From Salisaeta longa DSM 21114 (GTDB taxonomy: Bacteria; Bacteroidota; Rhodothermia; Rhodothermales; Salinibacteraceae), in NCBI RefSeq assembly GCF_000419585.1, contig NZ_ATTH01000002.1, positions 95,873 to 127,872 on the forward strand: a DNA stretch of 32,000 nucleotides. Direction: 5' to 3'. Made by a program: the position numbers and the translations under genes. This document shows, in pieces, positions 15,882 to 30,875 of this stretch. Under the pieces are notes generated by a model. That model made no database searches. It worked only from the letters and a program-made list of their open reading frames with translations, and was not told the DNA's origin. Each line of letters begins with the position of its first letter. Position 1 is the stretch's first letter.

Positions 15882-16556
15882 GTGCGCGTGTCTCCCGACG
15901 ATTTTGCCGAGCAACAGCCGCTTGCCCAGGCGGCGGCCGCGTGTTACGTAGACGAGGCGGCGGCGTGCACGCGGGCCGCGATCATCGAGCGCAGCGGGCA
16001 GCCGCCCGACGTGTTCGATCGTCACTTCACCCATCCCGAGGAGGCCCTCACGGCCTTCTACAACCTGCTGGTGCCGCAGTATCGCCTCATCACCGCCTCC
16101 ACGGAAGGGTTTGGCGACTTCTCGTTCGAGGAGCGCCTGGCGTCGTTCCACTACATTTTGCTCGATGGATTGGCCGAGCAGCGTGCCTTCGTGCAGGCCA
16201 CCTTCGAGACGGCCGTGCGCACGCGCTCGTCGTTGCGTGCAGACCTTCGCGCGGCCCTCAAGGAGCTGCTCACCAGCGCCGATGTGCCCAACACCAACCG
16301 CCTCATCACGGGCCTGTGGCCGGTGCAGGCGGTCCTCGTTGAGGTGACGATGGCGGTGCTCCGCTTTTGGGTGGCCGACGAGAGCGCCGAGCAGCAAGCC
16401 ACCACCGCGCTCGTCGACAAGCTCGTTGCGTTCATTGCTGAACTCGTGATGTTTGGTGGCGTGCAACGCGGCGTAGACCTCGCCTGGTACCTTGCCCGGG
16501 CCGATCTGCTGGGCCTCAAGCGCTTGCCCGTTGTGGGGCGCTGGTTTGGGTCGTAA
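15882..16556 (+). CDS. TetR/AcrR-like protein with a divergent N-terminal HTH
   Basis: 224-aa ORF with a GTG start; the frame is closed by a TGA at 15792-15794 and has no earlier in-frame start. LAQAAAACYVDEAAACTRAAIIERSGQPPDVFDRHFTHPEEALTAFY lines up with the TetR helix 1-3 pattern (iL.AA..lf...G...t...Ia..aGvs.g.fY.hF.sKeeLl), but the recognition helix is atypical. Confidence 0.45.
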   Translation: MRVSPDDFAEQQPLAQAAAACYVDEAAACTRAAIIERSGQPPDVFDRHFTHPEEALTAFYNLLVPQYRLITASTEGFGDFSFEERLASFHYILLDGLAEQRAFVQATFETAVRTRSSLRADLRAALKELLTSADVPNTNRLITGLWPVQAVLVEVTMAVLRFWVADESAEQQATTALVDKLVAFIAELVMFGGVQRGVDLAWYLARADLLGLKRLPVVGRWFGS

Positions 16557-16587
16557 CACGTGCTCTGCTGGATAATGATGGACCTGC

Positions 16588-17910
16588 ATGTCGGACGCAT
16601 CGGACGATTCCTTTCCCGCCTCTAAGCTCGACCGTGGAAAGATTTTTGCCAAGACCGGGCTCAAGGTGGGTGCCAACTACGCCAAGTACCTGGCCGACCG
16701 CGTCACCAAGGGCAAAGACGATGGCACGCGCAAGCGTGACCTGAACACCCGCAACGCCCAGGAGCTCTTCCGCGAGTTTACCAAGCTGCGCGGCACGGCC
16801 CTGAAGCTGGCGCAGTCGATGAGCATGGACACGGGGGTGCTGCCGGAGGAGTTCATGGATGTGATGGCGCAGGCGCAGTATCAGGTGCCGCCGATGAACA
16901 AGGCGCTGGTGCAAAAGCGCATCCGCGACGGATTGGGCGCGTACCCGGCGCAGCTGTTTGACGCGTTTGAAGCCGAGGCCCTGGCGGCGGCGTCGATCGG
17001 GCAGGTGCACCGCGCGCGCCTCGACGACGGCACGCCCGTGGTGGTGAAGGTGCAGTACCCCAACGTTCGCGAAACCATTGCCTCGGACCTCGCGATGGCC
17101 CGCTCCATCATCAAGCGGATCGTGAAGAGTCCCAACCTCGACGAGTACATGGACGAGGTGCGCGCCCGGCTGAACGAAGAGACCGACTATCTGAACGAGG
17201 CCGAAAACATCGCCTTCTTTGCCGAGCAATATGCGAGCGATGCGGTCGTCACGCCGCAGCCGGTTCGGGCGTACACCGCCGAAACCGTGCTTACCATGAC
17301 GTACGTGGAGGGGCAGCACCTCGACGCCTTTCTGGCCGACGACCCGCCCCAAGCGCGCCGCGACCACTTTGGACAGCGCCTGTGGGATTTCATCCACGAA
17401 CAGATTGCGAGCGACCACCGCACCATCCACGCCGATGCGCACCCGGGCAACTTCCTCTTTCGCACCGACGGCCGCCTGGGCGTTATCGACTTTGGGTGCG
17501 TGAAGACGTTTCCGCAGGACTTTCGCGACGATATGCTGCGGCTGTGGCGGGCGCGCATTGCGGATGACAGCGCGGCCATCGAGCCGCTGCTCTACCGCCT
17601 CGACATTTTGCACGAAGGCATGGATGCCGCGGCCCGCGCGCGCCTGCGGGACTTCTTTGACCGCTTCGGGTCGTTGATTGTGCGCCCGTACCGCACCGAC
17701 CGCTTCGACTTCGGCGCGCCCACCTTCCACCAAGAGCTGCAGGCCCGCTTTCGGGAAGCCTCGGAGCTCCGCGAAACGACCGGCTCGCCGCACTTCGTGT
17801 TCTTAAACAAGGTGCTGGTGGGCATCTTCAACCTGATGGGCCAGCTGGGGCCGGTCATCGACACGCGACGCAGCCGCACCCTGCTGGAAGGCACCGTCAC
17901 GGCGCTGTAG
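16588..17910 (+). CDS. ABC1/AarF/UbiB-family atypical protein kinase
   Basis: 440-aa ORF. FTKLRGTALKLAQSMSMDTGVLPEEF, AAASIGQVHRARL, VVVKVQYPNV and HADAHPGNFLF are hallmark ABC1-family motifs. Its last ~266 nt are duplicated at 30153-30418. Confidence 0.9.
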   Translation: MSDASDDSFPASKLDRGKIFAKTGLKVGANYAKYLADRVTKGKDDGTRKRDLNTRNAQELFREFTKLRGTALKLAQSMSMDTGVLPEEFMDVMAQAQYQVPPMNKALVQKRIRDGLGAYPAQLFDAFEAEALAAASIGQVHRARLDDGTPVVVKVQYPNVRETIASDLAMARSIIKRIVKSPNLDEYMDEVRARLNEETDYLNEAENIAFFAEQYASDAVVTPQPVRAYTAETVLTMTYVEGQHLDAFLADDPPQARRDHFGQRLWDFIHEQIASDHRTIHADAHPGNFLFRTDGRLGVIDFGCVKTFPQDFRDDMLRLWRARIADDSAAIEPLLYRLDILHEGMDAAARARLRDFFDRFGSLIVRPYRTDRFDFGAPTFHQELQARFREASELRETTGSPHFVFLNKVLVGIFNLMGQLGPVIDTRRSRTLLEGTVTAL

Positions 17911-17954
17911 CAACCGGGCGGGACCGCACTCCTCGATCGGGCGCGTGCGTCTCG
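17645..17954. repeat. Left copy of a 310-bp direct repeat (3' end of the ABC1-kinase gene plus 44 nt downstream)
   Basis: Base-by-base comparison with 30153-30462 at a constant offset of 12,508 nt. The core 17662-17954 has 5 mismatches in 293 nt and no indels. 17645-17661 has 4 mismatches in 17 nt, and similarity stops upstream of 17645. Confidence 0.9.
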
Positions 17955-18248
17955 CTGATCCACAGCGGGCGTCGTCGGATCCCTCGCCAGCATCGGTTCT
18001 AAGGCAGCGAATTTCGCCTCGCCTGCTGCGGCGGGAGTGAAGCGCACACCCCCCGGCATGCCCCAGCGTGCCGCTTACGGGGCACGTACCGTAAACGATG
18101 GGGGCGTAACATTTACAGGCCGTGAATTTGCCGCATCCTCGTCCGCATGGATCGGAAGGGCGTAGCGGTACGAGCCAGGGGCAAGTCCGGCGGGGAGGCG
18201 TGCGCGGAGGGTGTCCGTGGCGTCCGAGAGGACGCGTCATCGGTCGGT

Positions 18249-18293
18249 CGTGCACACCACGATGGACCGTGCACACCACGATGGACCGTGCAC
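18249..18293. repeat. Perfect 19-bp tandem repeat, 2.4 copies (CGTGCACACCACGATGGAC)
   Basis: Units at 18249-18267 and 18268-18286, plus a partial unit at 18287-18293. This gives three GTGCAC palindromes at 19-bp spacing. It abuts or overlaps the stop codon (18293-18295) of the NatB-like permease gene. Confidence 0.85.
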
Positions 18294-19486
18294 TACGTCC
18301 GGAAGATGATGTTTTCCTGCCGGAAGAGATAGGCGCACACGCCCAGCCCCAGCGCGGCCCACACCGCGAGCGAGCCGTAGACGAGCGCCAGCATGCCCAG
18401 GGCGATGTCGCCCGCGATCACGCCTTTGGTGGCAAGCGAGACGTTCAACACCGGGACGAGCGCCGTCACCGCGTCGAGCTCGATGCCCGGCAGCAGGCCG
18501 ATGAAGACCGGGAAGATGACCACGATGGTCAGCGGGTTGATGATGCTCTGCGCTTCCTTGAACGACTTGGCGTAGAAGGAGAGCGAGAGCTGCGCCGCAC
18601 CGAAGAAGAGCGTCAGCGGCACGAGCATCGTGAGCAGCGCCGCCATGACGCCGGGGTCGAGAATGTCGTACGCCGCGTCGAGCAGCGACTGCGGAACGTC
18701 GTCGACGAGCATCGGCGAGATGACGACGCTTCCGATGGCGATCACGGCCGAGGCCACGCCCGTCAGCACGATGGTGCCAAGCTTGCCGAGGAGGATCTGC
18801 GGGCGGCTCGCCGGGGTGGAGAGCAGCGCCTCCAGCGTGCCGCGCTCTTTCTCCCCGGCGCCCAGGTCGATGGCCGGGTACATGCTGCCGAGGAAGCAGA
18901 AGAGAATAAAGACGTAGGGCAGAAAGCCGCCGATGCTACGCGCGATCTTCTCCTGCGCGGTGGCTACGTCCACGTCGCGCACCTGCACGGCCTCGGTGGC
19001 GTCGAGCGAGAGCTGCAGGGTCGAAAACCGCTCCTCTAACAGCTGCCGCTCGTAGCCGTCGAGCACTTGCTGCAGCCGGCGCCGCAGGATGTCGGTGTTG
19101 TCGCCCGACTTGTAGACGAACTCGATGGCGCCCGCGCGCAAGTTCTGCACGGCGTCCTGGAAGGACGGGGCTACGATGAAGGCCGCATCCAGCACCTCGC
19201 GCCGGACGCGCGCCCGCGCCGAGTCCGGCGCCAGCCTGGTGACGACGTCCACCTGGGGCGCCGCCGCAAGCCGCTCGGCCAGCCCGTCGGCCTGCGCGCC
19301 GTGGACGAGCGCCACGCGCAGCGTCCGCTGGGCGGCCTGTTCACTCTGCGACTGCATGATCCACGTCGACGCTACAAACAGTAGCGGAAACAGCACGAGC
19401 GGCACTACCACCATGGCAATGATGGTGCGGCGGTCACGCAGCGTGTCAATCAGCTCTTTCTTGAAGACGGTAAATGCAGCGCGCAT
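18293..19486 (-). CDS. ABC-2 type transporter permease (NatB-like)
   Basis: 397-aa ORF. The N-terminus MRAAFTVFKKELIDTLRDRRTIIAMVVVPLVLFPLLF, a large extracytoplasmic loop, then five more hydrophobic segments including EKERGTLEALLSTPASR, which is typical of NatB/ABC-2 permeases. Confidence 0.85.
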   Translation of the reverse strand: MRAAFTVFKKELIDTLRDRRTIIAMVVVPLVLFPLLFVASTWIMQSQSEQAAQRTLRVALVHGAQADGLAERLAAAPQVDVVTRLAPDSARARVRREVLDAAFIVAPSFQDAVQNLRAGAIEFVYKSGDNTDILRRRLQQVLDGYERQLLEERFSTLQLSLDATEAVQVRDVDVATAQEKIARSIGGFLPYVFILFCFLGSMYPAIDLGAGEKERGTLEALLSTPASRPQILLGKLGTIVLTGVASAVIAIGSVVISPMLVDDVPQSLLDAAYDILDPGVMAALLTMLVPLTLFFGAAQLSLSFYAKSFKEAQSIINPLTIVVIFPVFIGLLPGIELDAVTALVPVLNVSLATKGVIAGDIALGMLALVYGSLAVWAALGLGVCAYLFRQENIIFRT

Positions 19487-19543
19487 GGTAGGTCGGCGGG
19501 TCGAGGGAGGAAGGGGGACGAGCCGGAGCGACGCGGGGAACGA

Positions 19544-20329
19544 TCAGGCCGCTTCCACGCGGCGAATGAACTCGTCTTCGAGGGTGGGCGCTTCCATTTC
19601 ATCGGAAAAGGCGTCGAACGAGCCGGCGTAGAGGAGACGGCCCTCGTGCAAGAGGCCGAGGTCGTCGGCCAGCAGGTTGACCTCGTCCATCCGGTGGGTG
19701 GAGAAGATGACGGTTTTGCCATCGTCGCGGCACTGGCGCACGAGGCGGATGATGCTGCGGGCAGCGATCACGTCGAGCCCGGCGGTGGCCTCGTCGAGCA
19801 CGACCACGTCGGGGTCGTGGATCATCGTGCGGGCGATGCTCACCTTCTGGCGCATGCCCGTCGAGAACTTGCCGATGCGCCGGTCGGCAAAGGCGTGCAT
19901 GTCGAGCAGGTCGAAGAGCGCGTCGCGTCGCCGCTGGAAATCCGTAGAAGAGACGCCGTGCAGGTCGGCGTGGTACTTGACGAGCTCGTGGGCGGTGAGG
20001 CGGTCGTAGAGGCCGGTGCTGCCGGTCAGGAAGCCGAGCTGGCGGCAGACGGCGCGCGGGTGCTCCATCACGTCGCAGCCGCCGACGCGGACGGTGCCTC
20101 GCGTCGGCTTGAGCATGGCGGCAATGATTCGGAGCGCCGTTGTCTTGCCCGCGCCGTTGGGGCCGAGCAGGCAGAAGATGCGGCCCGGTTGGCAGGTGAA
20201 CGAGACGTCGCGCAAGGCGTCGAGGGTGTCGCCCGTGTAGCGGTCGCCCATTTCCTTTTTCTGCTCACGCGAGAGCGTGTACGTCTTGGAGAGCTGTTGC
20301 ACCTCGATCATAAGAGTACCGTTGGACAC
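19544..20329 (-). CDS. ABC transporter ATP-binding protein (NatA-like)
   Basis: 261-aa ORF with Walker A GPNGAGKTT, signature FSTGMRQK and Walker B VVVLDEATAGLD. An alternative ATG at 20311 would start the protein at MIEVQQLSK. Confidence 0.9.
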   Translation of the reverse strand: MSNGTLMIEVQQLSKTYTLSREQKKEMGDRYTGDTLDALRDVSFTCQPGRIFCLLGPNGAGKTTALRIIAAMLKPTRGTVRVGGCDVMEHPRAVCRQLGFLTGSTGLYDRLTAHELVKYHADLHGVSSTDFQRRRDALFDLLDMHAFADRRIGKFSTGMRQKVSIARTMIHDPDVVVLDEATAGLDVIAARSIIRLVRQCRDDGKTVIFSTHRMDEVNLLADDLGLLHEGRLLYAGSFDAFSDEMEAPTLEDEFIRRVEAA

Positions 20330-20482
20330 GTGAGATCGCGGGAGAAGGCTTCAGTCACGGAGGATAAGCACGCCGTCCCCTTTCGGAAACCCCTCTTTAA
20401 TGAACGGTGACATGGTGTGCTGAACGGCAGATTCCGCCAGCGGGGAGCCGGCTGGGCTGCCAGAGACGGTGCTGCCATCCGT

Positions 20483-21619
20483 CTACGACCGTTGGCTAGA
20501 CGTCGCCGCTGCATGGGTTGCGTCTGCAGGTTTGGTGGCAGAGGCATCCGTACCTGTTTGCACGCGGCTGGGATTGCGGGGGACGCGCGCCGTTGCAACC
20601 ACGGTAGCCGGTCCATCCATTCCTAACTCGATCGAAGCCTCGGAGCCAAAGAGCAGGCGGAGGCGCTCGCGTACGTTTTGCAGCCCAATGCCGCCGGAAC
20701 GGTCCGACCCATTGAGTTGCCCGGTGTTAGCAACCCGCAGGTGCAGCGCATCGGCAGCGCAATGAGCGCTCACCCGCACCGTACCGCCGTTGGGCCGGGG
20801 GGCGATGCCGTGTTTGATGGCGTTTTCCACGAGCGTCTGTACGAGCAGGGGCGGAACAGAACGGCTGCACACGGCGGGGGGAACATCAATCCGGTACGCC
20901 AGCCGCTCCTCTAGGCGCACCGATTCGAGTTCGAGATACGTGCGTACAATCTCGATCTCCTTGCGCAGCGGCACCGTAACCGTCTTGCTGCTTTGCAGCG
21001 TGGTACGCAAGAGCCGCGCGAGGCGTGTGATCATCGTCTGCGCTTGCTCCGGATCCTCCGCCACGAGCGCGCGCACGCTGTTGAGGCTGTTAAAGAGAAA
21101 GTGCGGGTTGAGCTGCAGCTTGAGCGCGTCGAGCTTCGCCTCGCGCGATTGAACGGCCATCTCTAGCCGGTCGATTTCGGCCTGCCGGTAGTTCCAGAAA
21201 AAGTGCAGGCCGAAGTAGATCGTGGACCAAACGAGCAAGAGCAGGCCACCTCCGGTGAGGGCCGACACCAACAAGACGGGCTTCTGCAGCGTTGACAAGT
21301 CGCCGGCCCCCTCCGGTAGCCATCCGGCTTCACTCATGCCAATTTGAACCAGGTTCCAGATCACACTGAGGAGTACTGCAGCCAGGAGCATGCGGGGAAT
21401 GAGCGCGCGTAGGGGGAGGCGTGTCCAGTTGTAGGCGCGGAGATACGCGCGGTACGCGTGCGTAAGGCCGACGCCCAAGCCTACTGTTAAAACAAACCCA
21501 GTACCGAGTTCGATCGTGTGCGCCGCATCTTCCAGCAGGGCGTACAGCACGACGCCAAACGCCGCCCATAGGCCCCAGCCGCCAAGCTGGCACACCCAGT
21601 ATGCCTGTTTGCGTGTCAT
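20483..21619 (-). CDS. Sensor histidine kinase, LytS/YehU type (PF06580 His_kinase + HATPase_c) with a membrane-only sensor region
   Basis: 378-aa ORF. The N-terminal ~170 aa are hydrophobic helices with no sizeable extracytoplasmic domain. These are followed by LKLQLNPHFLFNSLNSVRAL (the PF06580 H-region), the N box LVENAIKHG and the G box GGIGLQNVRERL. It starts 29 nt after the stop of the permease::M1 gene. Confidence 0.85.
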   Translation of the reverse strand: MTRKQAYWVCQLGGWGLWAAFGVVLYALLEDAAHTIELGTGFVLTVGLGVGLTHAYRAYLRAYNWTRLPLRALIPRMLLAAVLLSVIWNLVQIGMSEAGWLPEGAGDLSTLQKPVLLVSALTGGGLLLLVWSTIYFGLHFFWNYRQAEIDRLEMAVQSREAKLDALKLQLNPHFLFNSLNSVRALVAEDPEQAQTMITRLARLLRTTLQSSKTVTVPLRKEIEIVRTYLELESVRLEERLAYRIDVPPAVCSRSVPPLLVQTLVENAIKHGIAPRPNGGTVRVSAHCAADALHLRVANTGQLNGSDRSGGIGLQNVRERLRLLFGSEASIELGMDGPATVVATARVPRNPSRVQTGTDASATKPADATHAAATSSQRS

Positions 21620-21648
21620 CAGAATGGGGGGAATGATGCTGCGCGCGG

Positions 21649-24600
21649 TCAGTCGTCCGCCGCCCGCGCGACGGTCGTCACGTTATCGCCCACAGCGCGG
21701 TCGATGAGCTTGGCGTACGGGTCGATGCCCGCGCGGGCAGGCTCGTCGTCCACGGTCACAGTGATCGTCTGCGCGCCGCTCTTAAGACGGTGCTTGCGCA
21801 GGTAAAGCGGCTCGGGCGGCACGTCGCTCGTGTCGGGCGGAAAGACGCCCACGTCGATCCAATCGTTCATGGCAACTTCGGTTTCCGCGCCTAGGCTATC
21901 GGCCCGTACCTTTCGGGCGATTACGTTGAGCGTCACGCGGTAGCGGCCGTTGCCGGTCGGCGTGTAGGTGGCCTTAGTTGTGCGGTTTTCGTAAAGCGTA
22001 ATGGTGCGAAACCAGTCATCGAGAATGTACTGGAGCGAGTCGGGGGTAACGGCCTCCAGCTCCTGCATCAGCTCCCGGGATGTAGGATAAGGCGGCTTGT
22101 TGAACTTCGTTTTGTTGATAAGACGACGCAGGGCCGTGTTCACGCGGTCCTCGCCAATGTAGTCTTGCAAGGCATACATCACGTTCGAGCCCTTCTGGTA
22201 GTGGATGTATTCCTGGCCAGCTACGCGCACAAGCGGCCGTTCGCCGCGCGATGCCGTCCGGCGCCCTTTCAGGTACCGATCGAGTTCGTATTTCAGAAAG
22301 CGGCGCATCTGGTGCGCGCCGTAGCGCTTCTTCATCACCATGAGCGCGCTGTACTGCGAGAGGGTCTCGGAGAGCATCGCGGCGCCCGCCACGTTTGCAG
22401 GCGCCACTTGGTGGCCCCACCACTGGTGCGCCACCTCGTGCGCCGTCACGTAAAACGGGAAGTCGATGTCGCTTTCCTCGTCGAAGCGCATGATGAAGCC
22501 CATTGACTCGGAGAACGGGATGGTGCCCAGAAACGACTGGGCGAAGGCGCCGTGGTACAGCGGAAACTCGGCAATGCGTAGGTGGCGGTTCTGGTACGGG
22601 CCGAAGTGGGTGGTGTAGTAATCGAGCGCCGTGCGCGCCCCGGCTACGAGGCGGTCGAGGTTGAAGGTGTGGGTTGGGTGGTGGTAGACGGTGATGTCAA
22701 CCGGTGCCTGCCCGGAGGCCGTATCGGGCGGCGTCCACCGGGCAGCGACGGTGTCGTACCGCGCAGAGAGCACTGTGTAGAAGTGGAGCATGGGCGCGCG
22801 GGTCGTAAAGCGCGCGTAGCGCCGTCCGTCAGAAAGCCATGTCGTGTCGCGGTGCCCGGGTGCCAGCGCAACCTGATCGGCAGCGGTGCTCACCGTCGCA
22901 GTGAAGTCGATCCAATCGGCATAACGGCTGAAGGCGTTTGTGCGCTGCGCCAGCGAATCATTCCTGGGCGGCAGAGGTGGCTTCGGCGGCAGTCCATAGT
23001 CCTCGCGCTCGCTGGGCGTGGAGAGCTCGCGCCTCGGTTGATAACCAATCTGCGGGAGCACGTTGTTACGCAGAAACGTGCCGTTGGCCACGAGCGCATC
23101 CACGTCTCCGGCGAATCCACGGGTGCGGATTGCCTGGCGCAGGGACAGCTGGAGCGTATCGTTGGGTGGCAGCGGTGCGTCCAGCACGTACGTGCGAAAG
23201 CCCAATGCCTTATCGTTTAGTGCGATTGTAGCCGGCTGGCTAAACGTGAGCTGCTCGACGTGCACGTCGTCTTGCGGGGGCAACTGCACATGCACCGAGT
23301 CGATGGCGCGGGGCGTCTTGTTGACAAGCGTGTACGAGCCGGCGATGGTTGCATCGCGCCGGCTCGGAAAGAGGTCGATGGCCACGTTTACCGCTGTCAC
23401 GCGCGGCTGTGGGGTATCTTCGAGCAGGCCGTACGTCCGCTCGTAGCGGGCACGCAGCGCCTTCTGCTCGTCGTTGGTACGGTAGGTGTGCAGCACGTTT
23501 ACATTGTAGAAGATGACAGCCCCGGTGCAGAGCATGAGCGTGCTCGCGCCGCCGAGGCGCAGCGCCATCGGGCGCGTGAGGCGGCGTTTGGCCTGCTCCC
23601 AGCGCGCACGGAGCGTGGTTTCGTTACCGCGTACCCACAGCAGGCGGGCGATGAGCGCCAGCACGAGGGCCACTGCGCTCCAGTGCAGGGCCGTCCACGC
23701 AAAGCGCGTGAGGTAATGGCCGTACCCGTTCAGGTCGGAGTACGGGATGCTGATCCCGCCGCCGAAGACGTAGAGCGGATGCTCCAGCCCCAACTGCGGG
23801 AGGAAGGCCAGGCTGAGGTAGTAGAGGATGATGAGGAGGTGGCCAACATACTTATGATTGACGACTGTATGCACGACAAGCGCCAGCGCACAGAAGAGCG
23901 CGTTCGATAGCAACCCGATGCCGAACAGCTCGCTCACGTACAGCCCCAGCTCAAACTGCGTGTAGCCCTTCACCAGTTGCGTTCCAATGCCTACAGCCAT
24001 AATAACGGCCTGGAGCACTACCACCATCCCAACCAGTGCTGCAAATTTCGACACGAGCGCAAGGCTGCTCGGCACGGGCAACGTGTCGGTAAGCGGTTGC
24101 ACCTTTAAGTCGCGCTCGCGCCAGACGAGCCGCCCGGCGTAGAACGCGATGAGCACTACCATAATTATGCCGAAGCCGGCGCTCAGCTCGTTTGCTACGA
24201 TGCGTGTTACGGGCTGAACGGTTGTGCCGTACTGCTGCCCAATCTCGTTTGCCCCGATGATAAGGAAAACCATACCGCCCGCCAAAATAGCGTAAAAGTA
24301 CACGTCGCGTACAATCTCAGAGAAAGCGCGCCGTGTGAGCGCTACAAGCTGCTGGAGACGCGCCCGGCTGTTATAGAGCAGCTGCACCGACGGGAGGTCG
24401 AGCTGCGAAATGAGCGTGCTAACGCGCCCTGCCGTCAGCGGATCTGCTTCCTCATCCGCTGTTGTGGTATCGGCCGATCCACCGCCCGCGAGGTGGGCAA
24501 CGCGAAACCGTGCAATGACCCCGGCAACGATCGTTCCGCTTATGCCAATCCACAGCAGCCGGTTAGCCAAGAGCAAGCCCGTGAGCGGCACGAGCCGTGT

Positions 24601-25308
24601 GTTCTGTTCCGTGGTCGTCCAGTAGCGTGTTACCTGATCCACCGTGATGAGGCCAAACGGATCCAGCAGCGCCGCGATCGTGCTATTCTCGATCGGGTTG
24701 CCGGCGATGAGCGTCGCTGCGATGCTGTGGCCGACGAGGAGCAGGATCCCTCCGATGTAATTGGGCAGCATCTTGCGTGTCGTCGCGGCCAGGGCAAAGA
24801 AGAGGGCCCCGGTAAACAGCAGATTGGGTATGACAAACAGCAGGTACGGCTGCAGGTAGGCACTGAGCCGGAAGGCGCCGAACTCGCTGGCGTCGAGCCA
24901 GGGCGTCACCTCGCCCGCCATCAGGCCCAGCGCAAAGCTCGCAAAGATGTAGAGGTTCACGGCCAAGGCTCCCACAAAGCGCCCGCCCAGAAGATCAAGC
25001 TTGCGCACGGGCGTGGTAAACATGAGCGGATGAATCCCGCTGGCGTAGTCACGATAAATGGTTTGCCCCATAAAGGCCGCCGTGATAATAAGGCCCAAGA
25101 AACTAAAGAGGGTCGTGTATAACATGACGGCATAAGGCGAATTAGCCGCCACAATAGGGCTAAGGCCCCCGATGCCGCCGTCTCCAAAAGCCCCACCCTC
25201 GACGTTGACGAGCAGGAAGCTGAGGGCAAAGAAGAGCAGAAAGTACACGTGGGTAGAGAGCGCCCGGAACCGGAACCGGACTTCGTGTGATGCAATACGC
25301 CAGAACAT
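21649..25308 (-). CDS. ABC-2 permease fused to an M1-family (aminopeptidase N-like) zinc metallopeptidase domain
   Basis: 1219-aa ORF. The N-terminal ~600 aa are polytopic membrane protein. The C-terminal half contains HEVAHQWWGH (HEVAH at 22426-22440, His957), a downstream Glu in MLSETL, and GAFAQ at the position of the GxMEN exopeptidase motif, 37 aa before the first His. Confidence 0.85.
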   Translation of the reverse strand: MFWRIASHEVRFRFRALSTHVYFLLFFALSFLLVNVEGGAFGDGGIGGLSPIVAANSPYAVMLYTTLFSFLGLIITAAFMGQTIYRDYASGIHPLMFTTPVRKLDLLGGRFVGALAVNLYIFASFALGLMAGEVTPWLDASEFGAFRLSAYLQPYLLFVIPNLLFTGALFFALAATTRKMLPNYIGGILLLVGHSIAATLIAGNPIENSTIAALLDPFGLITVDQVTRYWTTTEQNTRLVPLTGLLLANRLLWIGISGTIVAGVIARFRVAHLAGGGSADTTTADEEADPLTAGRVSTLISQLDLPSVQLLYNSRARLQQLVALTRRAFSEIVRDVYFYAILAGGMVFLIIGANEIGQQYGTTVQPVTRIVANELSAGFGIIMVVLIAFYAGRLVWRERDLKVQPLTDTLPVPSSLALVSKFAALVGMVVVLQAVIMAVGIGTQLVKGYTQFELGLYVSELFGIGLLSNALFCALALVVHTVVNHKYVGHLLIILYYLSLAFLPQLGLEHPLYVFGGGISIPYSDLNGYGHYLTRFAWTALHWSAVALVLALIARLLWVRGNETTLRARWEQAKRRLTRPMALRLGGASTLMLCTGAVIFYNVNVLHTYRTNDEQKALRARYERTYGLLEDTPQPRVTAVNVAIDLFPSRRDATIAGSYTLVNKTPRAIDSVHVQLPPQDDVHVEQLTFSQPATIALNDKALGFRTYVLDAPLPPNDTLQLSLRQAIRTRGFAGDVDALVANGTFLRNNVLPQIGYQPRRELSTPSEREDYGLPPKPPLPPRNDSLAQRTNAFSRYADWIDFTATVSTAADQVALAPGHRDTTWLSDGRRYARFTTRAPMLHFYTVLSARYDTVAARWTPPDTASGQAPVDITVYHHPTHTFNLDRLVAGARTALDYYTTHFGPYQNRHLRIAEFPLYHGAFAQSFLGTIPFSESMGFIMRFDEESDIDFPFYVTAHEVAHQWWGHQVAPANVAGAAMLSETLSQYSALMVMKKRYGAHQMRRFLKYELDRYLKGRRTASRGERPLVRVAGQEYIHYQKGSNVMYALQDYIGEDRVNTALRRLINKTKFNKPPYPTSRELMQELEAVTPDSLQYILDDWFRTITLYENRTTKATYTPTGNGRYRVTLNVIARKVRADSLGAETEVAMNDWIDVGVFPPDTSDVPPEPLYLRKHRLKSGAQTITVTVDDEPARAGIDPYAKLIDRAVGDNVTTVARAADD

Positions 25309-25442
25309 GACAGGAAAGAACGAACAGTGAGAGGGTAACGGCTGGGGATGGTTGGACGTGTCGGCGCACTAAAGCGCACCAGCGGGGTCGGTAGCGGCTC
25401 CGGGCCGGCCGTCGCTGGCGCTGGATGCGCGCCCACGTTCCT

Positions 25443-26348
25443 TCAGGCCTTCAGGGCGGTGGCGGACACCAGGTCTTGCATTCGTACGAAGTAAACGTCT
25501 TCAAGTGTGGGGCGCGCTGGCTTAAACCCATCGCCAGGATCCTGCTCGGCATAGACGCGAATGACGGGTCGCCCGGCCACGAGCCGCACCGAGATGACAT
25601 CGTGGCGCGCTTCGTACATCGGCAGGGTCACCCTTGTCACGGTGTGGCTCCAGATACGCCCTTCGAGGGCTCGAATGGCGCTCGCAGGGCTGCCCTCGAA
25701 TACGATGGAGCCTTTGCGAATCATGGCCATGTTAGAGCAGAGCTCGCGCACGTCCTTCACGATGTGCGTCGAGAGGATGACAATGCGGTTCTCGCCGAGC
25801 TCGCTCAGTAGATTCAGAAACCGTGTCCGCTCGGAAGGGTCGAGGCCAGCGGTGGGCTCGTCTACAATGATGAGCTGGGGGTCGCCCAGGAGCGCCACCG
25901 CAATGCCAAAGCGCTGTTTCATGCCGCCCGAATAGCTGTCGAGCGTTTGCGTTCGTGCATCCTGGAGGTTTGTGCGGTCAAACAGCGTATCTACAGTCGC
26001 GGCGCGCTCGCTCGCATCTGTAATACCTTTCATCACCGCAAAGTGATCGAGGAGATGGTCGGCACGGGCCTTTGGGTACAGCCCAAATTCCTGCGGCAGG
26101 TAGCCCAGGCGACGGCGCACGCGACGTTTCTCTGTAAGTACGTTGATCGTCGCGTCGTCGGTGTTGAGCTCAACGGTGCCGTCGTCGGGCTCTTGCAGCG
26201 TGGCAATCGTTCGCATGAGCGTCGACTTACCAGCACCGTTGGGGCCCAGTAGGCCGTAAAGACCCGTGGAGACCGATAGCGTGACCTCCTTGAGGGCCTG
26301 TGTACCGTTTGGATAGGTCTTCGAGACGTTTTCAATGCGAAGCTGCAT
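25443..26348 (-). CDS. ABC transporter ATP-binding protein (partner of the permease::M1 fusion)
   Basis: 301-aa ORF with Walker A GPNGAGKST, signature YSGGMKQR and Walker B LIIVDEPTAGLD. It has a C-terminal ~90-aa accessory domain. Confidence 0.9.
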   Translation of the reverse strand: MQLRIENVSKTYPNGTQALKEVTLSVSTGLYGLLGPNGAGKSTLMRTIATLQEPDDGTVELNTDDATINVLTEKRRVRRRLGYLPQEFGLYPKARADHLLDHFAVMKGITDASERAATVDTLFDRTNLQDARTQTLDSYSGGMKQRFGIAVALLGDPQLIIVDEPTAGLDPSERTRFLNLLSELGENRIVILSTHIVKDVRELCSNMAMIRKGSIVFEGSPASAIRALEGRIWSHTVTRVTLPMYEARHDVISVRLVAGRPVIRVYAEQDPGDGFKPARPTLEDVYFVRMQDLVSATALKA

Positions 26349-26392
26349 GGGAGTGCGGGGTTGTAAGGTAAGGGCAAGGGGCGCGTATGAGC

Positions 26393-26440
26393 GTACAGTA
26401 TGCAGCGCTTAAATAAAGCATCTACCAAGTAGAGTATGCA
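26393..26440. promoter_or_regulatory. Pair of 12-bp direct repeats GTA(C/G)AGTATGCA (26393-26404 and 26429-26440) upstream of the ABC ATPase gene
   Basis: 11 of 12 positions identical, with 36 bp start-to-start. They lie 45-92 nt upstream of the ATG at 26348, in a 363-bp spacer. A chance occurrence cannot be excluded. Confidence 0.25.
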
Positions 26441-26711
26441 CTGCAGGACGTAACCTGTAGTCCCTTTTGATAGGCGGGAAAGGGGCGCGACGAGCGGCAA
26501 GAACGGAAGATAGACAGCGAAGAAGCGGTGCTGCCTTCTGGCCGGCTCGTAAGTGCGCAGACAAGAAACAGGCGCAAAGGGCAGCGGAAGCAGGAGGGGG
26601 GCGCCGGTACCGGATGGGACAAGGAAGGTGCCGGCAGGTGCGCGGCGCAGCGAGTGGCGCAGCCGAGCGTTTCATTGTGTCGTGACCTGTAAGAAAAAGT
26701 GTTCACAGTAA

Positions 26712-27941
26712 CTACACAGAACGGTGCGCCTTCGTGCAACGAGCGCTGGAGGGGCGACAGAGTGCATTCAGCCATTGGGTTGCGGCTGCGGCCAGGCCGC
26801 GCACAGGGTCTCCGGCGAGTGCTTCGCGCGCCCGGCTTATCGTATCTGCTGTAGGCTCGCCCGTCGCCCACTGGACAGCGACTTGGGCTCGCAGGCGGAG
26901 GCTCTCGTCGTCGAAGGGGGTCCTGCCGGTGCCCACAGCGCGCCAGCGCGCCGCGGCGCCCGCATCTTGGCGCACGGCGCCCTCAAAGAACGCCGCCTCC
27001 AGGGCTAGTGACGGGAGCAAGGCCGGCGGGTACAACGCGTGGCGGTCTAAGGCTTCTTGCAATAGCCGATGGGCGCGCGTCATATCGCCGGTATCCAGTG
27101 CGTGCAGGTACGCCAGCCGCCGGCCTTCTACGTCGTAGGGCGTTTCATCGTCTACGGCCGTGGCCTGGTCGACAAGCGCGGGCTCCCAGGTGCACGGCCG
27201 CTTTTCAAACAGTAGCGCCGTGAGGGCAAAGACGGCCGCATCGCGGGCGGCCGCCGGATGGTTGCGCCAGATGCGCAGCAAGCGCGACCCGTCCGTGAAG
27301 AAGCCGCTCGTCGTTACGGGTACGAGCGTAACAACGCCTATACTGAGCGAGACTGTACCAAAGATAAGCGTTCCATCGGCTGCCATCCACCCGATGGGCA
27401 ATGTGCCCGACGGTACCGCGTCGTACAGGCCCAGTGCGATGTACGCGCCAATGGCTAGCAGCCCCAGCAACAGGCTCGCAGCAGGCCCGCCGGCCACCAT
27501 GCGTGCTTCGCCGCGGGCTAGATCTTGCAGGTCGGTGGGCACGCTGCCCGCCATTCCCCCATAGAGAGACCAGTGCGTGTGCAGTTCAACCTGGTACCCG
27601 GTATTCGTGCGTGTGACCATGAACGGTCCTACGGCGAGGAGTTGAAACCGAAAGCCACTCAGCCATCCGCCCAGCAAATGCCCGGCCTCGTGAACGGCCA
27701 GTGCAAGAAATATGATGACAGCCGTCCCCACAAGCGCGATCGCTCCGCCTAACACATCCAACGTGCCGGCAGGTACAGCGCTCGCCCCTCCGTCGTCGCC
27801 GATGAGCAGAACGTACGCGGCGTATCCAACTGCGCCACTCGCAAGCACAATAGCAGCTGTTTTAAGGAAGTCAATGGTAGCAGCATTATCCGGGGCGAGG
27901 CCCGCGGGCATCCGTAGCGGAGGCACGTCGGAGGCGTCCAT
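26712..27941 (-). CDS. M50-like (site-2-protease-type) membrane zinc metalloprotease with a C-terminal helical-repeat domain
   Basis: 409-aa ORF. HEAGH lies inside a transmembrane segment (FLALAVHEAGHLLGGWL), and a second membrane-embedded motif LVPVTTSGFFTDGSRLL resembles the M50 NxxPxxxxDG segment. The ~170-aa soluble C-terminal domain is alpha-helical and repeat-like. Confidence 0.65.
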   Translation of the reverse strand: MDASDVPPLRMPAGLAPDNAATIDFLKTAAIVLASGAVGYAAYVLLIGDDGGASAVPAGTLDVLGGAIALVGTAVIIFLALAVHEAGHLLGGWLSGFRFQLLAVGPFMVTRTNTGYQVELHTHWSLYGGMAGSVPTDLQDLARGEARMVAGGPAASLLLGLLAIGAYIALGLYDAVPSGTLPIGWMAADGTLIFGTVSLSIGVVTLVPVTTSGFFTDGSRLLRIWRNHPAAARDAAVFALTALLFEKRPCTWEPALVDQATAVDDETPYDVEGRRLAYLHALDTGDMTRAHRLLQEALDRHALYPPALLPSLALEAAFFEGAVRQDAGAAARWRAVGTGRTPFDDESLRLRAQVAVQWATGEPTADTISRAREALAGDPVRGLAAAATQWLNALCRPSSARCTKAHRSV

Positions 27942-28001
27942 GGCAGTTAGGCACGTGGTGAAAGGTGCGTACGGTGCGGCGTGAATTCCGTAAAAACGAC
28001 G

Positions 28002-28877
28002 TTAGCGCTGATGTATGGTGTAGCCTCGGGCTTCTAGCAGCGCAATGAGGCCCTTGCGCCCCACCATATGGCCGGCCCCCACCACAATCATAGGACGTGT
28101 GCTGCCTGCAAGTAGTGCCTCAATTTGGGGCACCCACCGCTGGTTGCGTTCTACCAGAAGGCGCCGGTACAGCGCCGGAAATTCTCGCATCATCTCGCCC
28201 TCAAGAAGGGCCCGCAGCCGTGTGGTATCGCCCCGTGCCCATGCACGCGTCATCTCGTCCATCTGCTGTATGGTGCGCCCCGAACGCGCTAACGTGTAGC
28301 GCAGAAAGTCCTCCTGCTGTGACGACGAGAGCCCATCAAAAATACGCAACTGCTCGCGGAGCGTCTCTAGGGAGCGGATGGGTTTTCCGGCAGTCTTGGC
28401 CTTACGGAAAAAGTGAGCATCGATGCCAGAACCGGGCGTGTAGCCAGCGCGCTGGTAAAGTAGTATGGGCACCGACATAGAAACCACCCACGGCTCCATG
28501 CGCTGCAACCGTTTAAGAGGTAAGTTAAGGCTGTCGGTGGTCGTTTTGAGCAGACGGTAGGCATCGCTTGAAAGCGTGCGTTGCAGCGTTTGATTGTCGC
28601 TGTACATGCCCATCTCGGCAATGAGCGCGGGGGCTTGTGTGCGGGCGCTGTCCAGGCGGGTTTCGAAGACCAGCACATCAGACGCAGCGAAGACGCTGTC
28701 GAAGGCCGGAGCCAGTGGGTACGCTTCGGGCTTTAGAAGATGAACCGACCCTACAAGGTATCCCTCGGTGCCTGCATCCGAACGGATGTCCCACAGCATA
28801 TGGCGGTCTTGTGCATGGGCAATCATCGGGAGCAACCCCAAGATGGCTATACATACAGCGGTCCAAAAGCGCTGCAT
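28002..28877 (-). CDS. TraB/GumN-family protein, secreted
   Basis: Track ORF 28002..28922 trimmed to the ATG at 28877 (signal peptide MQRFWTAVCIAILGLLPMIAHAQ). The family pattern is MLWDIRS..GTEGYLVGSVHLL... and the C-terminal IVVGAGHMVGRKGLIALLEARGYTI. Confidence 0.8.
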   Translation of the reverse strand: MQRFWTAVCIAILGLLPMIAHAQDRHMLWDIRSDAGTEGYLVGSVHLLKPEAYPLAPAFDSVFAASDVLVFETRLDSARTQAPALIAEMGMYSDNQTLQRTLSSDAYRLLKTTTDSLNLPLKRLQRMEPWVVSMSVPILLYQRAGYTPGSGIDAHFFRKAKTAGKPIRSLETLREQLRIFDGLSSSQQEDFLRYTLARSGRTIQQMDEMTRAWARGDTTRLRALLEGEMMREFPALYRRLLVERNQRWVPQIEALLAGSTRPMIVVGAGHMVGRKGLIALLEARGYTIHQR

Positions 28878-28965
28878 AGGGAAGCGTCTGCTCCGGAAAC
28901 CTACAAGTAATCGTGTGTGCATGGTAGTTCAAAGTTGTTAGAAGCTGCATTTGCAAAACCACTGC

Positions 28966-29001
28966 CTTTATAAAGCGACGCTACTCCGTTGTAAAGCGCA
29001 G
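28966..29001. promoter_or_regulatory. Direct repeat TT(A/G)TAAAGCG with 21-bp periodicity (28968-28977 and 28989-28998); candidate LytTR-type binding architecture upstream of the TraB/GumN gene
   Basis: 9 of 10 positions identical, with start-to-start spacing of exactly 21 bp. It sits in the AT-rich spacer between the regulator stop (29070) and the TraB/GumN start (28877). It overlaps a perfect palindrome CTTTATAAAG (28966-28975). The repeats are short, so chance is possible. Confidence 0.25.
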
Positions 29002-29069
29002 TATTGGTCAGTGGCTGCATCCTTTGATGAGTGGCGCTGGCCCTCTCCGTTTCGGGCAGCGGCTGGCGT

Positions 29070-29810
29070 TTACAGCTTCAAGTGCTCACGGAATTGCTTC
29101 GAGCGCCGACGCGAAAGTTCGATCTCGCTCCCGTCCTTCAGCTTTGCAAGAATCTTATCGCCAAACCAGGGGACAACGTCCTCTACCCAGTGCAGGTTAA
29201 TGATGTGCTGACGGCTTGCGCGGAAAAAGCAGTTGGGATCGAGGCGTTCTTCGAGATAACGCAGCGAGCGGTGTACAAGCGGCTTGCCCTTGCTGGAGAC
29301 GATGCGCGTGTAATTTCCTTCCGATGCGAAGTAGCGTACATCGGCCAGTTGCACAAAGTAGTAGCGTTTGCCATCCTTCACAAACACTTGGTCATCGGTG
29401 GAAAGGGTGGGCACGGGCTCCGCTTCCGCCACTGCCCCCTGCGGTTGAGTCGCCTTGGCTTGCTCGCGCACGCGCTGCACAGCCTCCGCTAATCGCTCGG
29501 GTTCAATGGGCTTGACAAGGTAGTCTAGCGCACTCACTTCAAACGCCTCAAGGGCGTAGGCATCGTACGCGGTCGAAAACACGACAAACGGCACGGCATC
29601 TAGACGCTCCAGCAGATCGAAGCCGCTGCCACCAGGCATCTGAACATCGAGAAAAAGGAGATCGGGCTGCAGGTCGTTGACGGCGGCCTCGGCCTCATCG
29701 GCATTTGTGGCTTCTCCAACGATTTCGAGATCCTCGTGGGCGGCCAGCAGGCGTCGCATTTCGCTGCGTGCCAGGCGCTCGTCATCGACGATAAGTGTTC
29801 GTAGCGTCAT
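29070..29810 (-). CDS. LytTR/LytR-AlgR-family response regulator
   Basis: Track ORF 29070..30146 trimmed to the ATG at 29810. MTLRTLIVDDERLARSEMRRLL...DLLFLDVQMPGGSG...LDYLVKP is a receiver domain. The C-terminal FVKDGKRYYFVQLADVRYFASEGNYTRIV...FFRASRQHIINL is a LytTR DNA-binding domain. 246 aa. Confidence 0.9.
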   Translation of the reverse strand: MTLRTLIVDDERLARSEMRRLLAAHEDLEIVGEATNADEAEAAVNDLQPDLLFLDVQMPGGSGFDLLERLDAVPFVVFSTAYDAYALEAFEVSALDYLVKPIEPERLAEAVQRVREQAKATQPQGAVAEAEPVPTLSTDDQVFVKDGKRYYFVQLADVRYFASEGNYTRIVSSKGKPLVHRSLRYLEERLDPNCFFRASRQHIINLHWVEDVVPWFGDKILAKLKDGSEIELSRRRSKQFREHLKL

Positions 29811-30152
29811 GATATGTACGACTATTAGTAGATTTTGGGCGTCAGGGAACGGTTTTGCAGGCCGTACGCTCGCCAACGATAGGCGCAAGAACGTATGCCC
29901 TCGGGCTGCTCCGCTCCCATGCGACGGGATAGGCGATTGGGAGACAAACAGCGCAAGGGTGCCGATACAACAAAATACTTCCATACAATGAAGATACGAA
30001 ACGCACTGGCCCTGTGAAAGCAATTTCTGATCGCCGGTAGCTTGCGCTGATGAGCGGGGGAGGCAACGTGCTGTAGCATTCGGGGACGGCTTGCCCGGCA
30101 GTTTGCGAACGGACGCATGTTGCATCTGCACGGGTGGCCGGTGCAAGTAAAT

Positions 30153-30418
30153 TGCGGGAGTTCCTTGCGCGCTTCGGGTCGCTGATTGTGCGCCCGTACC
30201 GCACCGACCGCTTCGACTTCGGCGCGCCCACCTTCCACCAAGAACTGCAGGCCCGCTTTCGGGAGGCCTCGGAGCTTCGCGAAACGACCGGCTCGCCGCA
30301 CTTCGTGTTCTTAAACAAGGTGCTGGTGGGCATCTTCAACCTGATGGGCCAGCTGGGGCCGGTCATCGACACGCGACGCAGCCGCGCCCTGCTGGAAGGC
30401 ACCGTCACGGCGCTGTAG
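30153..30418 (+). pseudogene. Orphan 3' fragment of an ABC1-kinase gene (displaced or duplicated copy)
   Basis: It reads ...KLREFLARFGSLIVRPYRTDRFDFGAPTFHQELQARFREASELRETTGSPHFVFLNKVLVGIFNLMGQLGPVIDTRRSRALLEGTVTAL, which is identical to the C-terminus of the 16588..17910 product from FGSL onward except for Thr/Ala. It has no kinase domain upstream. The track ORF 30134..30418 only has a GTG start. Confidence 0.85.
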
Positions 30419-30462
30419 CAACCGGGCGGGACCGCACTCCTCGATCGGGCGCGTGCGTCTCG
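30153..30462. repeat. Right copy of the 310-bp direct repeat
   Basis: See the left copy. The offset is 12,508 nt and identity ends at 30462 (left copy 17954). Confidence 0.9.
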
Positions 30463-30875
30463 TTGGTTAAAGCCAGCGGCCCGCTACTGCACGAGCGGCG
30501 GGAGGGGCGGTGTCCCTTGCATATCGCAGGGGGATACAGCTCTTGGGTGCCCACAGCGATTGCAGGAACGGTTACGCTCGCCCCAAAGCGGGCGTCGTCG
30601 GGCGACCCTTTGCCAGGCCCGTTTCTGAATCAGCAGGCCCCGCTCCAACCGCTACGGAAGTAACGAAGCGCTCCCCACCCCCCAAGCCATGCAATCGACG
30701 GATCGGCCGGTGCGCGCAGCAGAGATCATAACGTCTAGTGCGCCCGCTCCGAGCCTATGGAATGAGGCCCGGCTCCCAACGCACGAAGCCGCTCCCGCCA
30801 CGAGGGCAGGGGCGGCTTCGGTGGTCACGTTGCCTGACGGCACATCTGTTACGGGTAGGCTCGTGGCTCCCTCGG

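Follow-up and report, generated by a model that had tools for sequence, protein, structure and literature searches.

Why do a LytTR two-component system, two ABC-2 exporters and three metalloproteases lie together on one strand of the chromosome of Salisaeta longa? The genes in question form an island of eight (18293–29810 of the window, by which we mean the whole 32-kb stretch of DNA analysed), read from the minus strand throughout. They encode, in order of transcription, a REC-LytTR regulator, a TraB/GumN protein, an M50-like protease and, after a 363-bp spacer (26349–26711), an ABC ATPase, an ABC-2 permease fused to an M1 peptidase (ABC-2::M1), a PF06580 kinase and, after a second spacer, a NatA-like ATPase and a NatB-like permease (Table 1). 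The locus appears to be a LytTR-controlled ABC-2 exporter resembling NatK-NatR/NatAB, equipped with a peptidase-fused permease and co-regulated proteases. All its parts come from families already described, and NCBI has a name even for the fusion family; the eight-gene combination is new among the sampled data, the full set being present in no other sampled genome.

Independent gene calling on an assembly contig of 12,288 bp (L001) returns the same eight genes, and NCBI numbers their products consecutively from WP_022836893 to WP_022836900. A sequence-only reading of this DNA had announced nine genes, its own list naming eight. Gene order, strand, coordinates and the 363-bp spacer were as it gave them, and Pfam recovers all the domains that it predicted. 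The second spacer, for which it reported 153 bp, has that length with a GTG start of NatA at 20329 (20330–20482) and measures 171 bp with the ATG start at 20311 in the gene calls.

Table 1 Features of the island and its boundaries, in window coordinates
Feature	Position	Strand	Product	Match or remark
ABC1/UbiB-like kinase gene, intact	16588–17910			Pfam ABC1, 203 bits
Left direct-repeat copy	17644–17958	+		Last 88 codons of ABC1/UbiB-like kinase gene plus 48 nt downstream; left island boundary
NatB-like ABC-2 permease	18293–19486	−	397 residues; WP_022836893; COG1668/K09696 natB	PF12698, 91 bits; PF12679
NatA-like ABC ATPase	19544–20311	−	255 residues; WP_022836894	PF00005, 103 bits; best NCBIfam match DrrA-type
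Candidate operator CCGTTCAGCA / CCGTTCATTA	20398–20427	−		20-nt phasing; 87–116 nt upstream of NatA start
Membrane-only (sensor-less) PF06580 histidine kinase	20483–21619	−	378 residues; WP_022836895	PF06580, 94.5 bits; weak HATPase_c
ABC-2 permease::M1 zinc peptidase fusion	21649–25308	−	1219 residues; WP_022836896	PF12730 and PF01433
Cognate ABC ATPase of fusion permease	25443–26348	−	301 residues; WP_022836897	PF00005, 103 bits
Candidate operator CCGCTCGTCG / CCGCCTATCA	26468–26497	−		20-nt phasing; 120–149 nt upstream of ATPase start, in 363-bp spacer
M50-like (site-2-protease-type) intramembrane zinc protease	26712–27941	−	409 residues; WP_022836898	PF02163, 29.8 bits (cut-off 27.2)
TraB/GumN (Tiki-like, YbaP-type) protein	28002–28877	−	291 residues; predicted signal peptide	PF01963, 249 bits
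Candidate operator CCACTCATCA / CCACTGACCA	29005–29034	−		20-nt phasing; 128–157 nt upstream of TraB start
REC-LytTR response regulator, BtsR-like	29070–29810	−	246 residues; WP_022836900	PF00072 and PF04397
Right direct-repeat copy	30135–30465	+		Displaced, promoter-less 3′ fragment of ABC1-kinase gene; right island boundary

The fused transporter and its two-component system

The fusion protein is built from two six-helix ABC-2 halves, each with an interface helix ahead of it, followed by a thirteenth transmembrane (TM) helix (TM13, 579–605) and domains I–III of an M1 peptidase (AlphaFold2 (AF2) model with a mean pLDDT of 80.4 and a pTM of 0.74). Four of the first 15 residues are K or R, and a K/R-rich loop that is predicted to be cytoplasmic (559–578) precedes TM13, where G596 and N602 are invariant. 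Given a cytoplasmic N terminus, the peptidase behind TM13 is predicted to be periplasmic.

Foldseek matches the model to ERAP1/2 and APN (E about 1e-16), with alignments that span about 600 columns of M1 enzymes 820–910 residues in length. The HEXXH motif, the downstream glutamate that completes the zinc ligands and the catalytic tyrosine are all in place (H957, E958, H961, E981 and Y1037), invariant in 34 sequences and aligning to the ERAP2 active site. Two further M1 features are missing: GXMEN, the exopeptidase motif that binds the free N terminus of a substrate, and domain IV, the C-terminal helical cap over the active site. The GAMEN of ERAP2 aligns to F-A-Q-S-F, of which A923, Q924 and S925 are invariant and from which the motif glutamate is gone, and the AF2 model ends in a β-sandwich (1103–1195), with no helical domain. 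The conserved residues point to an active zinc peptidase; with the GAMEN glutamate and the capping domain absent, it is probably an open-site peptidase and not a strict, classical aminopeptidase.

NCBI names the family 'ABC transporter permease/M1 family aminopeptidase'. The window protein is 100% identical to the Salisaeta longa entry of that name; it is collinear with other members over its full length and shows no family-level difference. Searches give 989 word-filtered homologues (100% coverage and 44–78% identity for the 120 best listed), 2,109 clusters at 50% identity (E ≤ 1e-30) and at least 597 confirmed stretches in GTDB species genomes. The best 150 of the 2,109 cluster representatives are almost all 1,170–1,260 residues long and mostly align end to end. 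Members occur in more than 600 species and come from Bacteroidota, Rhodothermota, Acidobacteriota, Gemmatimonadota, Myxococcota and Burkholderiales.

We surveyed 89 loci of the fusion pair with flanks of up to 10 kb (labelled L001 onward). An orthologue of the partner ATPase (53–79% identity) adjoins the fusion gene in almost every locus with neighbouring DNA, upstream everywhere except in L078, where it lies just downstream; ATPase and ABC-2::M1 protein are a self-contained unit. The most recurrent neighbour of this pair is a PF06580 kinase/LytTR regulator, present in 12 of the 89 loci and mostly immediately adjacent. The gene order is kinase-regulator-kinase-ATPase-fusion in L089, kinase-regulator-ATPase-fusion in L090, kinase-M50-like-ATPase-fusion in L088 and M50-like-ATPase-fusion-kinase in L003; the system also stands directly beside the pair in L043, L069, L073 and L086, and 1.4–3.8 kb from it in L002, L004, L027 and L082. 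Unsupervised clustering of the neighbouring open reading frames (ORFs) places response regulators (17) and PF06580 kinases (12) among the top recurrent families and yields no other widespread partner. The co-occurrence across genomes that the sequence-only reading had proposed to look for is seen for the two-component system and, in L003 and L088, for the M50-like gene; it is not seen for TraB or for the full set, and NatAB shows it only in Oxalobacteraceae.

Further peptidase genes recur around the fusion pair. One of the S9 family (prolyl oligopeptidase/DPP-IV-like) lies less than 6 kb from it in five unrelated loci (L007, L023, L037, L041 and L086), and S9 or S10 peptidases are also found near it in L002, L003 and L091. 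Transposase genes (rve, OrfB_IS605 and DDE_Tnp_1) lie around the L089 block, at 2548–3777 and 13355–17719, and L004 (Salinibacter altiplanensis; 16184–17038) has a phage-type integrase, with a RES/Xre toxin–antitoxin pair nearby. The transposases and the integrase hint that the module is mobile.

Kinase and regulator are of the LytS/LytTR type, the one combining PF06580 with HATPase_c and the other REC with LytTR. The kinase gene begins 29 nt past the stop codon of the fusion, and a fusion–kinase junction of 15–29 nt is kept in L003. The His box (LNPHFLFNSLN) and N box (ENAIKHG) of the kinase are conserved with its orthologues in L003, L088, L089 and L090. The same group conserves its membrane domain, an N-terminal stretch of some 140 residues that consists of TM segments only (about four) and in which neither Pfam nor NCBIfam matches a 5TM-Lyt or GAF sensor domain. 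The best NCBIfam match of the regulator is BtsR (NF008677), at 179 bits and below the equivalog cut-off of 246.

The two genes lie 7.5 kb apart in the window. The kinase scores 295–530 bits against the kinases of L003, L088, L089 and L090, and the regulator 343–345 bits against the regulators beside the transporter in L089 and L090; against the other survey loci, the window proteins reach only 72–136 bits. Since in L089 and L090 the orthologues are neighbours of each other and of the transporter, the window kinase and regulator appear to be a cognate pair that ancestrally lay beside the transporter and was later split by rearrangement. The partnership had been presumed from the DNA of this locus, and the adjacent orthologous pairs agree with it.

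A candidate operator ahead of three transcription units

Direct repeats about two helical turns apart, of the sort that LytTR regulators use upstream of their targets, are predicted in silico in the island. We described the motif in two ways. An a-priori pattern, pairs of CCRCTYA with 20–21-nt phasing, was taken from the 'YehT binding site' oligonucleotide of Escherichia coli yjiY, which carries CCGCTCA, CCGCTTA and CCACTCA spaced 20 and 21 nt (PMC4847170). A matrix was trained on seven boxes of L088 and L089 only, then scored on all pairs on both strands of the window. Boxes resembling CCG[C/T]TC[A/G]T, phased at 20 nt, precede the ATPase gene of the window, of L088 and of L089, the last with three boxes; they also precede NatA in the window and, in L089, the first kinase gene. 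In core and phasing, the candidate boxes CCGCTCA, CCACTCA and CCGTTCA match those of the YehT oligonucleotide.

With the trained matrix, the NatA-promoter pair ranks first window-wide (score 20.2; the 95th percentile of the null best pair is 18.6), and it also fits the pair pattern derived from E. coli. The TraB-promoter pair ranks third and is the sole pair in the window with at most one mismatch in total to CCRCTYA. The ATPase-promoter pair ranks fifth (score 15.6) and is a CCRCTYA pair with 1+1 mismatches; the orthologous ATPase genes of L089 and L088 have its motif ahead of them at an equal distance, and each of these loci has one CCRCTYA pair with at most one mismatch, exactly upstream of the ATPase. 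Allowing up to two mismatches gives six pairs in the window, three of them in sense-strand island promoter DNA. As such DNA accounts for about 2% of the search space, the number expected in it is about 0.06. Five window pairs score at least 15 with the trained matrix, whereas control loci totalling 1.75 Mb have 0.8–0.9 such pairs per 32 kb. We regard this as moderate to good in-silico evidence that the island would form one regulon of three operons (TraB-M50, ATPase-fusion-kinase and NatAB). Control by the LytTR regulator, on which the sequence-only reading depended, gains in-silico support from BtsR/YehT-like box pairs upstream of all three units.

Several other repeats were seen. The pair ranked second, GCGCTCGTCG/GCGTTCATTG (21 nt apart; 16407–16437, plus strand), lies at the end of a TetR-like gene and about 150 nt upstream of the ABC1-kinase gene, the insertion target of the island, perhaps by chance. 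Two further direct repeats, both on the minus strand, have weak statistics and are not found in related loci: CGCTTTACAA/CGCTTTATAA (21-nt phasing, 28968–28998) upstream of TraB, and TGCATACTCTAC/TGCATACTGTAC (36 nt apart, 26393–26440), 45–90 nt upstream of the ATPase start. Among such repeats, we rejected as operators a doubled CGCTTTAYAA ahead of TraB, phased at 21 nt (confined to this locus, with weak statistics), and a 12-nt repeat, TGCATACTSTAC, present twice upstream of the ATPase (not above chance). A naive search for 10-mers common to the spacers gave nothing above shuffles, and a scan for sigma-70 promoters and terminators returned counts matching the shuffled expectation, the promoter type being probably unsuited to this phylum. 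In L090, six tandem copies of a 14-nt unit, AGTCACGCATCACG, stand immediately upstream of the orthologous ATPase gene (about 8840–8925), in the position that the box pairs occupy in the window, L088 and L089.

Proteases, the NatAB-like pair and the island boundaries

The M50-like protein carries H84-E85-x-x-H88 within a TM helix (63–94) and an (N/L)xxPxxxxDG motif, both conserved among 17 homologues, in which L206, P208, D217 and G218 are invariant. Its AF2 model (pLDDT 75) ends in 180 residues of helical, TPR-like repeats; Foldseek matches are weak, to mjS2P (3b4r; probability 0.98, E 0.4) and to TPR-like proteins. Pfam matches no PDZ or CBS accessory domain in it, such as those in RseP/Eep and SpoIVFB, and a sequence search of the PDB with its profile gives no match. 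Just 18 members of its family can be detected. Only in L003 and L088, the two closest relatives, does an orthologue precede the ATPase (427–448 bits); L024 has a weak one. A reciprocal survey of 30 metagenome loci of distant relatives (best segments 29–50% identical) found no linkage to the fusion. On one metagenome contig (L095, 268–3596), NatA-like, NatB-like and M50-like genes are consecutive and co-directional, with no fusion gene.

The TraB/GumN protein has the paired GxxH motifs and the glutamate of its family (G43-S-V-H46, G267-A-G-H270 and E72, invariant in 12 homologues). Its N terminus is hydrophobic and signal-peptide-like, ending AHA/Q; there is an alternative start at 28922, and the NCBI product has 274 residues. 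The protein has 322 homologues, many named YbaP, and the surveyed loci show no conserved linkage of TraB to the fusion pair.

The NatB-like permease has a 141-residue extracytoplasmic loop after TM1. It matches only positions 3–400 of the 636-position NCBIfam model NF041647 (350 bits, below the cut-off of 435), aligning end to end with the permease part and, at 397 residues, lacking the CPBP half. From this partial alignment we take its close relatives to be fused to a different, CPBP protease, and the NatB-like lineage thus appears to be a second ABC-2 permease lineage recurrently joined to a protease. A NatA–NatB-like pair lies directly upstream of, and co-directional with, the ATPase–fusion pair in five Oxalobacteraceae (L060, L065, L066, L081 and L084; runs at about 6900–13600, NatB 206–233 bits). 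Among the 89 loci, NatAB adjoins the fusion only there and in the window, and it is not syntenic in relatives.

A direct repeat of 315 nt at 97% identity, its limits set by pairwise alignment, stands on either side of the island; the repeat search itself reports 300 nt at 97% identity with a spacing of 12,508 nt. As the repeat duplicates the 3′ end of the ABC1-kinase gene, we read the 12.5-kb island as inserted there by recombination. The public short-read assembly ends exactly at these repeats, which yields the 12,288-bp contig L001. No integrase, transposase or tRNA that would account for the insertion lies within the window. Rfam and tRNA scans of the island find no match, and the defence-system models of PADLOC meet only generic ABC-ATPase similarity there, with no specific match. 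Both flanks are ordinary chromosome. The left one holds an Nuo/Mrp subunit, isocitrate dehydrogenase, UmuDC, a Na/Ca exchanger, a fatty-acid hydroxylase and a TetR-like gene, its UmuD/UmuC-like translesion polymerase pair lying at 9511–11434. Just right of the island is an RTX calcium-binding repeat protein (30876–31979) with 25-nt internal DNA repeats.

The lower-GC core described earlier is real. GC content at third codon positions (GC3) is 0.65–0.78 in the six genes from the kinase through the regulator, compared with 0.90–0.91 in NatA/NatB and 0.84–0.86 in host genes of the left flank. Since NatAB differs in this way from the other six genes, the block is evolutionarily composite, and the mosaic suggests different evolutionary histories inside one repeat-bounded unit. 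Even if the regulon prediction fails, the eight-gene block is a clear example of a modular, recombination-acquired island.

The sequence-only reading saw no obvious precursor-peptide gene, and neither do we: a small-ORF search of all island spacers found only Arg/Pro/Ala-rich ORFs of non-coding composition and no credible precursor. An 88-residue ORF in the 363-bp spacer was rejected as a precursor gene because it is not conserved, the corresponding spacer being only 139–207 bp in L003 and L088.

Precedents, mechanism and rival explanations

The sequence-only reading knew of no described system with this combination. The closest precedent, NatK-NatR/NatAB, was overlooked. In Bacillus subtilis, the LytTR-type NatK-NatR regulates natAB (Ogura 2007, as cited in PMC3498285). 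The likeness is one of protein type and gene order: a LytTR regulator and a small membrane-embedded LytS/PF06580 kinase stand beside an ABC-2 exporter of NatA/NatB type, and in the window NatA/NatB come directly after the kinase, past the 171-bp spacer, with the strongest operator pair at the NatA promoter. The window differs in that its two-component system travels evolutionarily with the M1-fusion transporter, its predicted regulon adds three metalloproteases and its kinase and regulator genes are far apart.

A second precedent joins counterparts that had earlier been listed separately. In Firmicutes, Eep (M50), PptAB/EcsAB (ABC) and PrgY/TraB act successively on hydrophobic peptides derived from signal peptides (PMC7117660, PMC7157817), forming one known pathway, and EcsAB is required for the function of the M50 protease RasP (PMC7478892). 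The same three kinds of protein, for intramembrane cleavage, ATP-driven export and extracellular degradation, are adjacent in the window, whereas the Firmicutes genes are scattered. The window permeases are not of the EcsB family (no Pfam match) and one of them has a peptidase fused to it; TraB is of the soluble YbaP type and not a membrane-anchored PrgY; and the host is a diderm halophile with no pheromone known. The membrane anchor and pheromone-responsive conjugation that define enterococcal PrgY/TraB find no counterpart here, where TraB has an N-terminal signal-like segment only and its relatives are chromosomal and YbaP-type.

Two other systems share single traits. E. coli BtsS/BtsR (YehU/YehT; PMC4847170, PMC5552118 and PMC5431176) is similar in regulator family, box core and phasing, but the window regulator falls below the equivalog cut-off, its kinase lacks the 5TM-Lyt and GAF sensor domains of BtsS, and exporters and proteases take the place of a CstA-type pyruvate importer among its candidate targets. 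Bce-type modules (BceRS-BceAB) likewise couple a sensor-less intramembrane kinase genetically to an ABC transporter through which it may sense, and a resistance-type logic is plausible here too. They differ in that BceB has an FtsX domain, BceS is HisKA_3-type and BceR OmpR-type, families that Pfam does not find in the window. Relative to the NCBI fusion family, the two-component system, the M50-like protease, TraB and NatAB are lineage-specific additions.

We tentatively favour, at a little short of an even chance, a reading in which the eight genes form one LytTR-controlled envelope regulon for the inducible export and degradation of envelope peptides. The ancestral core would be an exporter of two ATPase copies and one 13-TM permease carrying a periplasmic M1-type peptidase, together with a sensor-less PF06580 kinase co-transcribed with the exporter and the BtsR-like LytTR regulator of this kinase. 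The kinase, possibly reading the co-expressed transporter, would activate the regulator, which when phosphorylated would bind CC[G/A][C/T]T[C/T]A-like direct repeats 20 nt apart, 90–160 nt upstream of three operons, and induce the M50 protease along with both ABC-2 exporters and the two periplasmic metallopeptidases, of which the M1 domain is tethered to its exporter. The M50-like protease would cleave inside the membrane and the ABC-2 exporters pull material out of it, while the M1 domain on its tether and TraB, a secreted Tiki-like protein, would degrade the peptides as they emerge. The outcome would be an inducible clearance of hydrophobic or membrane-associated peptides, whether endogenous (signal-peptide-like remnants) or exogenous (membrane-active toxins). 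We infer this regulation, the periplasmic topology, the substrates and the sensing through the transporter, and with them a peptide function for the module.

A number of observations count against such an envelope-peptide regulon. At the level of the proteins, the topology of the fusion is a prediction only, and ABC-2 exporters carry many non-peptide cargoes. Most members of the fusion family, across at least six phyla, lack a two-component system; inducibility is therefore lineage-specific, and the core is general-purpose rather than dedicated to signalling. The M50-like family is very small and shows no linkage to the fusion among its distant members, TraB is of the common YbaP type and has a 53%-identical orthologue in an unrelated context, and the codon composition of NatAB (GC3 0.90) is unlike that of the rest of the island (0.65–0.78). 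No substrate, precursor or toxin gene was found at the island. The operator motif is degenerate in a GC-rich genome, and the work on it was partly post hoc; BtsR-like boxes are absent from the promoters of L003 and L090 and from loci with paralogous LytTR systems, and no box pair above the thresholds lies upstream of the regulator gene itself.

A bolder reading, which we judge rather unlikely, would make ABC-2::M1 fusions an unrecognised 'extract-and-degrade' class, in which the exporter draws hydrophobic peptides (signal-peptide remnants or membrane-active toxins) from the inner membrane and passes them straight to its own periplasmic open-site peptidase. The Salisaeta version, linked by the BtsR-like regulator and a kinase sensing through the transporter to the M50 protease, the Tiki-like protease and the second exporter, would be a diderm counterpart of Eep-PptAB-PrgY gathered in one regulon. 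Several of the same features could instead serve a dedicated resistance or immunity to an exogenous peptide antibiotic (Bce/LanFEG-like), the kinase monitoring the activity of the fusion transporter, the regulator inducing both exporters and the proteases destroying the toxin. In its favour, the kinase lacks any extracytoplasmic domain and, here as in L003, lies translationally adjacent to the permease; the candidate operator apparently makes expression inducible; lantibiotic-protection and DrrA-type models match the ATPases, with scores under their cut-offs; and the block was acquired as an island and has lower GC. We nevertheless consider immunity unlikely, given ABC-2 permeases in place of BceB/FtsX, a LytTR/PF06580 system in place of OmpR/BceS, no bacteriocin or lantibiotic biosynthesis genes found nearby, and a widespread, chromosomal fusion pair that in most cases has no two-component system. 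It is also conceivable, if improbable, that the ABC module moves no cargo and is an ATP-driven mechanotransmitter gating or activating its own periplasmic peptidase for the processing of envelope proteins, as FtsEX or NosFY act on their partners. The peptidase is tethered covalently to the membrane domain through TM13; with no capping domain IV, the transporter may control access; and JGI annotators named many family members NosY-like 'multi-copper enzyme maturation permease'. The precedents FtsEX, MacB and LolCDE, however, have FtsX-type and not ABC-2 membrane domains, and the data do not separate gating from transport.

The NatK-NatR/NatAB precedent suggests a simpler role, efflux of an ion or small molecule by a halophile, with the proteases as unrelated neighbours. 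The natB label of the NatB-like permease, the PF06580 kinase directly upstream of NatA, the top-ranked boxes at the NatA promoter and the B. subtilis regulation of natAB cited above would fit it. We find it decidedly improbable: in other genomes it is the fusion transporter, not NatAB, that orthologues of the kinase and regulator accompany, the same boxes stand ahead of the protease and fusion operons, and the fusion of NatB-like relatives to a CPBP protease (NF041647) points to peptide or protein work and not to Na+ transport. Were the genes a fortuitous juxtaposition in a recombination-acquired island, with the ATPase and fusion pair alone functional, one would expect what is seen of the full set, which no other sampled genome has, of TraB and NatAB, which are not syntenic in relatives, and of the mosaic composition. 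This reading is very improbable, because two-component system/fusion, M50/fusion, NatAB/fusion and NatAB/M50 linkages recur independently and operator-like pairs stand at three promoters against the 0.06 or so expected. The sequence-only reading had allowed for a random juxtaposition; recurrence of the parts in other genomes and the motif shared by three promoters argue otherwise. Its pheromone flavour fares worse. Gram-positive peptide signalling does combine a LytTR regulator with an M50 protease, a TraB-family protein and an ABC exporter (PMC7117660), yet a peptide pheromone or quorum-sensing locus of Agr/Com/Blp or Eep-PptAB-PrgY type is hardly credible here, because the kinase is PF06580 and not HPK10 and no precursor gene was found; the spacers hold no credible small ORF, the window has no C39 domain and hence no C39-peptidase exporter, TraB is soluble and the regulator resembles the metabolite-responsive BtsR.

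The ABC-2::M1 fusion family is very large and phylogenetically broad, and a full-text search found no relevant or experimental paper on it, or on LytTR combined with ABC-2. The context of the Salisaeta locus, with its predicted operator, apparently cognate two-component system and putatively co-regulated proteases, is unusually informative and gives testable hypotheses on the role of this family. If the envelope-regulon prediction holds, a LytTR system from beyond Proteobacteria and Firmicutes would gain both a DNA motif and a set of targets. If true, the cooperation of ABC exporter, M50 protease and Tiki-like protease on membrane peptides would extend from Gram-positive pheromone biology to diderms.

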